Made by a program: the position numbers and the translations under genes
Part shown: positions 1,822-3,389 of the stretch, in pieces
Position numbering within the stretch: position 1 is the first letter of the stretch
How the letters are laid out: the number at the start of each line of letters is the position of its first letter
Source of the DNA: a virus
Lineage: Duplodnaviria > Heunggongvirae > Uroviricota > Caudoviricetes
Strand: one strand, 5' to 3'
Length of the DNA: 5,694 nucleotides
Virus record (IMG/VR): IMGVR_UViG_2698536559_000015
Notes under the pieces: model-generated
Seen by the model: only the letters and a program-made list of their open reading frames with translations
Told to the model about the DNA's origin: nothing
Database searches by the model: none

Positions 1822-1850
1822 AAACGGCCTAAGGGCCGTTTTATTCTTCT
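1822..1850 (+). terminator. Rho-independent terminator between convergent Q and the minus-strand operon (possibly bidirectional)
   Basis: Stem 1822-1829 (AAACGGCC) pairs with 1834-1841 (GGCCGTTT), loop TAAG, followed by the T-rich run TTTATTCTTCTTT on the + strand. It lies 17 nt after the Q stop and 1 nt from the stop of the - strand gene at 1841. On the - strand the downstream sequence is less U-rich. Confidence 0.7.
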
Positions 1851-2269
1851 TTAGTAACTTCAATAGGTAAAACTTCTACATTCTTACCAATGTTAACAAT
1901 CTTTCTAACAGTTTCTTCCCGATCAGCAATAAGCTCAGCTTTAAATTTCTCGCTTAGATGAGGGCTTTTCAGTTGCTCATCAATACCTTTTAAATCTCTC
2001 TCAAGGCGATTTCTTAGGGCGGCTTCGGCTGGAGACTCAAGTCCATGTCGATTGATAACATACAACATAATGTAGGTTAGCATTGCTGACACTAATGGGG
2101 CGAGGGCATACAAAAAAGCTCTCCATTCACTATTAGGGTCAGGCGCCAATAGTGGTACCAATGTAGTTAGAACTGCGCCAATCCCGCCTGTTGTTAGACC
2201 AGAATTACTACTTAAAATGCTTTTTTTATCACCGCTCATTATTTGACTGCCTGTGCGCGGTTGCATCAT
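1841..2269 (-). CDS. Small membrane protein, two predicted TM helices plus a charged helical C-terminal tail (holin-like topology); third gene of the low-GC operon
   Basis: Minus-strand ORF with stop TAA at 1843-1841. Hydrophobic segments GGIGAVLTTLVPLLA and FLYALAPLVSAMLTYIMLYVI are followed by about 70 charged residues. Start is ambiguous: TTG 2272, ATG 2269/2266, or ATG 2239, the last overlapping the upstream gene stop by 11 nt. No family recognised. Confidence 0.7.
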   Translation of the reverse strand: MMQPRTGSQIMSGDKKSILSSNSGLTTGGIGAVLTTLVPLLAPDPNSEWRAFLYALAPLVSAMLTYIMLYVINRHGLESPAEAALRNRLERDLKGIDEQLKSPHLSEKFKAELIADREETVRKIVNIGKNVEVLPIEVTKEE

Positions 2270-2492
2270 CAATTAGCTCAACGATCTTCTTTCCATCTTT
2301 AGCATCTAAGTGGATAGTAATCGTTTTTTCAAGCATGCGTTCAGCACTGTAAAACCTTAGTTCTACGATTTTTGTAGGAAAAATTTTACGCCACAACAAC
2401 GCGGAACCAGCATAAACAAAGCGATAGAAGGTCGGGAGACTTACAAGCACCCCCAACCAAAAAACGATTTGTAAAAGCTGTTGCTGAATCAT
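2229..2492 (-). CDS. Small (87 aa) membrane protein with one N-terminal TM segment; second gene of the low-GC operon
   Basis: ATG at 2492-2490, stop TGA at 2231-2229. N-terminal hydrophobic stretch LLQIVFWLGVLVSLPTFYRFVYAGSALLW is followed by a roughly 50-aa polar domain. It starts 15 nt after the stop of the upstream gene (TAG 2510-2508). No family recognised. Confidence 0.7.
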   Translation of the reverse strand: MIQQQLLQIVFWLGVLVSLPTFYRFVYAGSALLWRKIFPTKIVELRFYSAERMLEKTITIHLDAKDGKKIVELIDDATAHRQSNNER

Positions 2493-2507
2493 TAGTTTCT
2501 ACCAAAG

Positions 2508-3389
2508 CTAGATCAATTTTTTCCCTTGAATCACGCGATGACGAAGTACTTTCTTGATAACATACTTTTCTGTTTGTCCTCGTGCGGAAGTTGTACGTGT
2601 TGTTTCTAGAAGCACAGAAAACATATCTTCACTTGTGATCGTTCCCTCTGCTTGCCTTACTTTAGCTAAAAACTCATAGTCTGTAAGTAGTACGGAGTGC
2701 TCATCTTGGTTGTAGTCCATCCTCCACCCCTTCTCACTATGAAAGTTAACTTGGGTAAATTTTACATTAACCTCTTTTTCTTCAACTGTTTTGGTCAAAA
2801 GCGTCCCTCTGGGAAGGGGTTTAATCTCTTCAGTTTGCTCTCCTTCAAGCTTGAGCAAAACTTTATCATTCTCATCTACAATTTTAAAAATGGGAGAGTC
2901 TTTACCATCTAAAGGAGCCTGAACAACAGAAATCAACGCATCCCGAATTGTTGGCTCAGTTACCAAGGTTGCAACTGCTGATGAGCATTCAATCTCACCA
3001 TCTTCAAATTCAAGAACAGCCTTATCTGTTCCTGCTTTTTTGGTAATCGAAACAACTTTTTTTGAGCCTAATTGTCTTATTAACGATAAAGCGGTGGCAT
3101 GAGCTGTTGCGCCCACAGTTCCAACAATCCCGATAGTTTGCAGAACGTCAATTGCATGCGGTAGGAGTTGCACTACAGTATATGCAATACCCACAGATCC
3201 TTTCTGGATGGGGGCAGTGACTAAAATTTTTACAGATTTGTTGCCCTCATTTAACAAGCTATCAGCTTTATTAATAAGAGTTGTCATGGAAAGTATTGAT
3301 TTACCAAGTGTTTCAGCGTCAATAGCATGCTTTGACAATTCTTTATCATTGGCGTCATAAAACACCTTAAAGGAAGTTGACTTCTCCAT
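2508..3389 (-). CDS. 293-aa soluble hypothetical protein; first gene of the low-GC minus-strand operon (candidate sensor/effector of a defence-like module)
   Basis: Uninterrupted 293-codon frame in AT-rich DNA, where long ORFs are unlikely by chance. ATG at 3389-3387 is preceded by SD AAGGA with about 5 nt spacing. I see no Walker, HNH, TIR or other catalytic motif by eye. Family unknown to me. Confidence 0.8.
   Translation of the reverse strand: MEKSTSFKVFYDANDKELSKHAIDAETLGKSILSMTTLINKADSLLNEGNKSVKILVTAPIQKGSVGIAYTVVQLLPHAIDVLQTIGIVGTVGATAHATALSLIRQLGSKKVVSITKKAGTDKAVLEFEDGEIECSSAVATLVTEPTIRDALISVVQAPLDGKDSPIFKIVDENDKVLLKLEGEQTEEIKPLPRGTLLTKTVEEKEVNVKFTQVNFHSEKGWRMDYNQDEHSVLLTDYEFLAKVRQAEGTITSEDMFSVLLETTRTTSARGQTEKYVIKKVLRHRVIQGKKLI

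Follow-up and report, generated by a model that had tools for sequence, protein, structure and literature searches.

A three-gene antisense cassette beside the antiterminator of a lambdoid prophage: a probable anti-phage defence operon with a MichelleMyBell gp29-like core protein

We analysed a stretch of 5,694 nucleotides (nt) from a Caudoviricetes virus record (IMG/VR record IMGVR_UViG_2698536559_000015), referred to here in its entirety as the window, which by its gene content is the late-regulatory region of a lambdoid prophage. Between its antiterminator gene, Q, and an array of tRNA genes lie three minus-strand genes, A, B and C, here called the cassette. An earlier reading of the DNA letters without database searches (the sequence-only reading) had proposed these genes as a Rex-like phage-exclusion or abortive-infection module. 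The cassette and the features adjoining it are the following:

2508..3389, minus strand: gene A, 293 amino acids (aa), the gp29-like core protein
2229..2492, minus strand: gene B, 87 aa, with a single predicted N-terminal membrane helix
1841..2239, minus strand: gene C, 132 aa from ATG, a predicted two-helix membrane hairpin
3395..3399, minus strand: Shine-Dalgarno sequence of gene A (AAGGA), separated by 5 nt from its ATG, as read from the sequence
1822..1841, T-run on the plus strand: GC-rich terminator-like hairpin lying where the stops of C (1841) and Q (1805) converge
3390..3685: AT-rich spacer from the start of gene A to the tRNA array
1434-1805, plus strand: antiterminator Q (PF06530), convergent with the cassette; context, outside the module

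The three open reading frames (ORFs) are packed exactly as had been described, with a 15-nt gap between A and B (2493-2507) and an 11-nt overlap of the B stop with the C start (2229-2239), and the good Shine-Dalgarno sequence claimed for the first gene is in place; an alternative start of gene C, a TTG at 2272, would give a product of 143 aa. RefSeq annotation of near-identical DNA (99.8-100% over 1700-3700) carries the same three genes. The cassette is AT-rich, as had also been stated (39.8% guanine plus cytosine (GC) vs. 51.5% in the left flank, 1-1805, and 50.0% in the right flank, 3686-5694; flank maxima of 55-59.5% in local 200-nt intervals), and the GC content at third codon positions is 0.33 in gene A and 0.29 in gene C vs. 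0.55 in the DUF968 gene at the left end of the window. The low-GC block is nevertheless wider than had been claimed, since it extends from ~1500, inside Q (44.9% GC), to ~3650, just short of the tRNA genes.

The sequence-only reading could place none of the three proteins in a known defence family, a statement that was overturned for A. When the PADLOC models were searched, as had been recommended, A matched PDC-S42 (PDLC05015; E = 4.1e-27, residues 5-286), and the same model was matched by every one of 105 diverse relatives of A (105/105); for B and C, nothing significant was found in Pfam, NCBIfam or PADLOC. The PDC families are 145 untested candidates, collected from members embedded in BREX, DISARM, type I restriction-modification (R-M) or Hma systems (bioRxiv 10.1101/2024.01.29.577857), and PDC-S42 is a single gene in PADLOC, unlike the three-gene unit described here. 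A further matched PHROG 3243, of unknown function in that catalogue, and NCBIfam NF053583 (LAPAL_fam; 190.1 bits, cut-off 60); no Pfam family matched A itself, and 24/105 of its diverse relatives matched Pfam DUF7946. A word-indexed search returned 87 close relatives across Enterobacterales, and an exhaustive profile search of a library of 50%-identity clusters returned 2175 cluster representatives at E ≤ 0.001; among the best 150 of these 2175 matches, nearly all are 280-310 aa long.

An AlphaFold2 model of A (mean predicted local distance difference test (pLDDT) 82.7, predicted template modelling score (pTM) 0.66) comprises an N-terminal strand, long helix and hairpin (residues 1-75), a poorly modelled hydrophobic stretch rich in glycine and alanine (76-107), an alpha/beta domain in the middle (112-187) and, at the C-terminal end, a barrel whose strands are ordered as in an OB-fold (199-285). 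The hydrophobic stretch is kept across the family (median best 19-residue Kyte-Doolittle value 1.57; ≥ 1.6 in 51/105 members), and A is therefore not plainly soluble, as the description of the operon as a soluble protein followed by small membrane proteins would have it. Residues conserved in at least 90% of the 105 diverse members are Y11, H21, G64, S65, G87, R149, P159, W222, D237, F240 and V281, which correspond to no catalytic motif known to us.

What is known of the function of this family comes from a mycobacteriophage. A depositor's note on a Vibrio homologue ('MMB_gp29_gp30__gp29') led to MichelleMyBell (KF986246), whose gp29 is a protein of 310 aa; the gene that follows overlaps it and encodes a 67-aa protein with two hydrophobic helices. 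When the 105-member alignment of A was compared with gp29 by hhalign, the two were related with a probability of 98.5% (E = 2.4e-15) over 265 columns spanning both proteins; gp29 scored 73.8 bits with the hidden Markov model of the A family, and gp29 itself matched the PADLOC PDC-S42 model (E = 1.6e-16). Foldseek, which the sequence-only reading had recommended, returned no match of the A model to the PDB at E ≤ 0.001.

The gp29/gp30 pair of MichelleMyBell, listed in DefenseFinder as MMB_gp29_gp30, resembles the cassette in several respects. A (293 aa) and gp29 (310 aa) are full-length homologues that share an H-x-(I/L)-(D/R)-A motif, a GSF, an invariant tryptophan and the hydrophobic Gly/Ala-rich segment; a gene for a small membrane protein follows each of them, overlapping in the case of gp29; and both systems are carried by temperate phages outside the structural operon, here on the opposite strand between Q and the tRNA/lysis region. 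They differ in that the host phyla are not the same, A and gp29 are only ~18% identical, and the single 67-aa protein with two transmembrane (TM) helices is replaced here by B (one TM helix) and C (a 2-TM hairpin with a cytoplasmic helical domain, as predicted). Moreover, a defence phenotype is known for the mycobacterial system only. It is described in papers of the discovering laboratory that cite Dedrick et al. 2017 (Nat Microbiol 2:16251): according to PMC8549241, the plating of Tweety is 4-5 logs lower on MichelleMyBell prophages, a reduction that tuning of Tweety gp54 can counteract, and PMC6426606 describes the Phrann and MichelleMyBell systems as 'typical of abortive infection', adsorption and DNA injection proceeding. 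A later paper, PMC11856565, calls gp29 a 'toxic protein' and gp30 a 'putative membrane protein', of mechanism unknown, and is the sole source of the claim of toxicity.

The part of the earlier description that concerns small membrane proteins stood, as a prediction, for B and C. An N-terminal TM helix was found in B in 26/26 non-redundant trios, with no lysine or arginine (K/R) before it and, in the 15 aa that follow, a median of 3 K/R, and in the window the helix of B is followed by a basic tail of ~55 aa. Since basic residues are absent before the helix and abundant in the tail, B is predicted to be N-out/C-in. C has predicted membrane helices at about 17-31 and 38-65, followed by predicted cytoplasmic helices at 70-90 and 97-115, and since basic residues stand at both of its ends, it is predicted to be N-in/C-in. 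These topologies would place the soluble parts of A, B and C alike in the cytoplasm. The 2-TM hairpin of C resembles gp30 in position and topology, and by analogy B and C may be regarded as partners of the gp30 type.

A pair of predicted inner-membrane proteins in every trio, borne by temperate phages, also calls to mind superinfection exclusion, in which B and C, with A as their partner, would block DNA entry at the inner membrane and the cell would survive, as with HK97 gp15, T4 Imm and Charlie gp32, the last being an exclusion protein from the same mycobacteriophage cluster (PMC9262239). We consider this unlikely, given that such proteins usually act alone, that the core of the family is instead a cytoplasmic protein of 290 aa which, next to a type I R-M gene, also occurs with neither B nor C, and that the MichelleMyBell system is described in PMC6426606 as abortive, with phage adsorption and injection going ahead.

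The three genes form a conserved unit. We counted gene order over the first 82 loci fetched, searching their ORFs with iterated profiles, and found a homologue of C ~250 nt downstream of A in 80/82, with the same A-B-C order also in most loci fetched later. The interval between A and C always contains an ORF of ~80 aa with an N-terminal hydrophobic helix, usually overlapping the start of C; the conserved layout is therefore A, a single-pass membrane protein of ~80 aa and a two-pass membrane protein of ~130 aa. This layout persists down to ~25-33% identity in A and in unrelated settings, and nine of ten independent divergent samples (9/10) have the three-gene unit. Pairwise identities of A, B and C correlate strongly (r = 0.92-0.96 over the 26 non-redundant trios), whereas those of A and the neighbouring Q correlate only with r = 0.41, from which it follows that the trio is inherited as one block that recombines against its surroundings.

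The sole exception found is a distant member beside the type I restriction gene HsdR (locus L016), which lacks B and C. There, a 190-aa soluble protein (L016 6130-6702) follows A in their place, and more distant PDC-S42 proteins may use other partners. At a metagenomic, non-phage locus (L007), a 294-aa gene (4951-5835) lies just upstream of the trio; its product has N-terminal and central hydrophobic segments and no obvious similarity to A on reading the sequence, and may be either an additional partner or part of a system of its own.

To judge by where it is found, the cassette is accessory cargo and not a core or structural gene. In 66 loci it is convergent with a Q of the PF06530 type, with stop codons 4-42 nt apart, and occupies the slot between Q and the lysis genes, in Escherichia, Citrobacter, Klebsiella, Enterobacter, Serratia and other hosts. 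Elsewhere, Mu-like phages carry the trio either in their early region or amid the head genes, and in a PM2-like Vibrio prophage it adjoins the integrase. It has DNA methyltransferases as neighbours in the nin region, follows immediately on a cI-like repressor at L015, and is also borne by Pseudomonas megaplasmids and by an element with a Mob_Pre relaxase. Family members also lie beside R-M genes, the distant one adjoining HsdR and another adjoining a DNA methylase. The Q-to-lysis slot is one that lambdoid prophages use for variable accessory genes more generally, including the stx genes downstream of pR' and the antisense porin gene nmpC/lc of DLP12/PA-2; the insertion slot is the same, but the genes and their presumed functions are unrelated to those of the cassette. 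Shigella phage SfIV, too, carries unrelated antisense genes, gp48 and gp49, together with an insertion sequence (IS) transposase gene in its Q-to-holin slot (L083 2433-3855), and gp49 (356 aa) might be another defence candidate.

Within E. coli, the variant of the window is rare, being complete in 20/5426 complete genomes, and at the DNA level the Q allele of the window turned up in no genomes other than these 20. A second variant, with an A protein 29% identical to that of the window, fills this slot in a further 38 complete E. coli genomes; an example is L089 936-2450 (E. coli MIN10), in which the 81-aa B gene (1323-1568) is unannotated in RefSeq, and a 36-aa 'antiterminator' ORF is called in the spacer instead. 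A contig profile search with a closer alignment of A returned 2 loci only.

The same distribution bears on the name attached to NF053583, 'LAPAL motif-containing putative phage structural protein', which, together with the occurrence of the gene in prophages, would make A a phage structural protein. We find this very hard to credit: the gene is sited in early or regulatory regions and runs opposite to the structural operon; it occurs on plasmids and beside R-M genes and, bar the exception above, always travels with two membrane proteins; and A has no fold or sequence match to any virion protein but shares homology with a defence protein. A does not even contain the literal string LAPAL and has QAPLD at 157-161. 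The NCBIfam name looks like a misnomer, context and homology pointing to a defence protein.

We then considered how the cassette is placed with respect to the transcripts around it. The hairpin at 1822-1841 consists of AAACGGCC, a 4-nt loop and GGCCGTTT, and overlaps the stop codon of C. Its T-run is clean on the plus (Q) side, and the tail on the cassette side is weaker (TTTAGAATATT); the proposed terminator shared with Q is thus present as a hairpin that could serve both transcripts, although a clean T-run is found on the Q side only. Because this hairpin fills the 35 nt from the Q stop to the cassette, the late promoter would have to be on the cassette's right-hand side, and because a late promoter cannot fit into those 35 nt, the cassette lies outside the late transcript. 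The cassette promoter and the phage late promoter would both have to fall somewhere within 3390-3685. The claim that the cassette is antisense to late transcription was imprecise in this respect, as the cassette is read in the direction of Q, with the late genes behind it, and converges on Q's own transcript.

The spacer is itself conserved. A block at 3473-3685 is kept upstream of gene A in every aligned locus with the cassette beside Q, and prophages that lack the cassette have it too, between their antiterminator gene and tRNA-Ile (226 nt separate the antiterminator stop from tRNA-Ile in strain E2); this block is presumably the late regulatory region of the phage. It contains a conserved hairpin (3485-3499), and a sigma-70-like site on the plus strand (3648-3676) is the only one in the spacer above the threshold of the promoter scan. 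From this arrangement we infer that the cassette was inserted between Q and Q's downstream regulatory region. No Rfam family was found in the cassette or in the spacer (3390-3685), and the fold of 3440-3575 is not unusually stable (z = -0.33).

The recurrence of this slot raises the question of an accessory to the lysis programme, that is, a holin/antiholin regulator or a lysis-timing device. The cassette lies in the Q-to-holin slot in 66 loci and just upstream of the endolysin in Mu-like phages and at L087, the MichelleMyBell genes are placed after lysin A and holin, and C has a weak match to a holin PHROG (phrog_565). That match is not significant, however (E = 0.028), and no holin family in Pfam or NCBIfam was matched by C. 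In the window, the cassette and the lysis genes are on different strands, and the late transcript does not include the cassette; elsewhere it follows a cI-like repressor or sits in the nin region, among head genes, on plasmids or beside R-M genes, with no lysis genes nearby; and ~99% of E. coli genomes carry neither variant when searched at the DNA level. We therefore rate a function in lysis as improbable.

In line with the sequence-only proposal of a moron (accessory cargo) and a candidate exclusion or abortive-infection module, the homology of A to gp29, its match to PDC-S42, and the movement of the trio among phages, plasmids and R-M neighbourhoods all favour defence. The small membrane protein encoded after gp29, the conserved architecture of the trio, its rarity in E. 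coli and its low GC content count in the same direction. Judging from these sequence relationships, we think it probable that the cassette is a prophage anti-phage defence operon and represents the proteobacterial three-gene form of the MichelleMyBell gp29/gp30 family. Some observations weigh against this interpretation. B and C have no detectable similarity to gp30 (hhalign probability <1%), which is a weak test for short membrane proteins. No minus-strand promoter upstream of A rose above the scan threshold, so that lysogenic expression can only be supposed. The family is nearly absent from 50,697 phage records, in which tblastn gave no hit for A and a single hit for the second variant. Expression in the lysogen, protection of E. 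coli, the trigger and the killing component are what we infer for the cassette, the defence phenotype itself being taken from the mycobacterial homologue.

Were the cassette such a defence operon, a single transcript would yield A, B and C by coupled translation, B (N-out/C-in) and C (an N-in/C-in hairpin) would be inserted into the inner membrane, their soluble parts facing the cytoplasm, and A would be held at the cytoplasmic face by B, by C and by its own Gly/Ala-rich segment. On infection of the lysogen by a different phage, a product made after DNA entry would release or activate A, for which the C-terminal OB-like barrel would be the best candidate sensing surface, and activation would stop the cell or the phage before progeny are formed, as in abortive infection. 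If the lone toxicity of gp29 holds, A would be the effector and the membrane proteins its restraint or anchor; alternatively, and still within a defence role, the membrane proteins may act as the effector, as in a Rex-like arrangement. We place much less confidence in any particular version of this mechanism than in the defence reading as a whole. A bolder proposal, which we advance only tentatively and regard as doubtful, is that PDC-S42/gp29-like proteins with two membrane partners constitute one widespread abortive-infection machine of new mechanism, shared by Actinobacteria and Proteobacteria, in which the OB-like domain would sense a phage product and killing would proceed from the cytoplasmic face of the membrane by a protein with no known catalytic or pore domain, for instance by insertion of its Gly/Ala-rich segment.

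Toxicity of the core protein would also suit an addiction module, similar to a toxin-antitoxin pair, that stabilises a mobile element and has no role in defence, A being the toxin and B and/or C its restraint. The tight, translationally coupled operon, its presence on megaplasmids and other mobile elements, and the report of a toxic gp29 (PMC11856565) would accord with this. Yet the homologue confers a defence phenotype of 4-5 logs (PMC8549241), and the family was picked up through its embedding in defence systems, so that we judge pure addiction to be quite unlikely. Note that the two readings are compatible, as many abortive-infection systems are toxin-antitoxin-like.

The likeness to Rex held as an analogy of layout and failed as a relationship. 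Lambda RexA/RexB and Sbash gp30/gp31, like the cassette, comprise a cytoplasmic protein of ~280-290 aa followed by one or more small membrane proteins and are prophage-borne, and the L015 member comes straight after a cI-like repressor, where rexAB sits in lambda. No sequence resemblance had been seen in the earlier reading, and this was confirmed: hhalign gave 0.2% for A vs. RexA and 0.1% for C vs. RexB; DUF4747, a domain reported in RexA and Sbash gp30 (PMC6426596), was matched neither by A nor by its 105 relatives; and RexA was absent among the PDB fold matches listed for A. RexB has four membrane helices vs. one in B and two in C. Membership in the Rex family was rejected on these grounds (the hhalign values, the missing DUF4747 and the differing numbers of membrane helices). 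The gap between lambda rexA and rexB (L094 826-2115) is also exactly 15 nt, as between A and B, which we take as coincidence.

Part of this is already known: four catalogues contain the family, and a phenotype has been published for its mycobacterial member. In the literature library searched, no paper names PDC-S42, the LAPAL motif or DUF7946, and the link between PDC-S42 and gp29 is consequently made in none of the papers there. This link, the co-evolving proteobacterial trio with its different membrane partners, and the recurrent slot between Q and the late regulatory region appear to be new. The link raises the standing of an untested PADLOC candidate with ~2000 sequence clusters by tying it to an experimentally described mycobacteriophage defence, and it offers a tractable E. 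coli counterpart for a mycobacterial system whose mechanism is unsolved. As the unit comprises three genes, PDC-S42 cloned alone might give only toxicity or no phenotype. In lambdoid prophages of enterobacteria, the space between Q and the late regulatory region is a slot for defence cargo, if the cassette is so read, and holds at least two cassette variants (29% identical) as well as the unrelated genes of SfIV. Two annotation problems also came to light, namely the probably misleading 'structural protein' name in NCBIfam and the B gene left unannotated in RefSeq.

The remaining features of the window, which lie on either side of the cassette and Q, are as follows:

14-1069, plus strand: DUF968/HNH gene, from ORF and family match
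plus strand: RusA gene, from ORF and family match
3686-3926, plus strand: three tRNA genes with anticodons CAT, TTT and TCT
4070-4531, plus strand: TerB-family gene with an in-frame stop at 4235-4237
4700-4886, plus strand: match to the small RNA (sRNA) STnc100 (RF02076), from Rfam

The TerB-family gene of this prophage is probably a pseudogene; an intact copy of 143 aa is found at the equivalent place in strain E2. The STnc100 match, downstream of the TerB and DUF3927 genes, is strong (114 bits vs. a gathering score of 47). In related prophages, RefSeq names the gene equivalent to that with the CAT anticodon tRNA-Ile. The tRNA array of close relatives differs from that of the window, reading Ile-Lys-Thr-Gly, from which we conclude that mosaicism extends to the cargo on the cassette's right.

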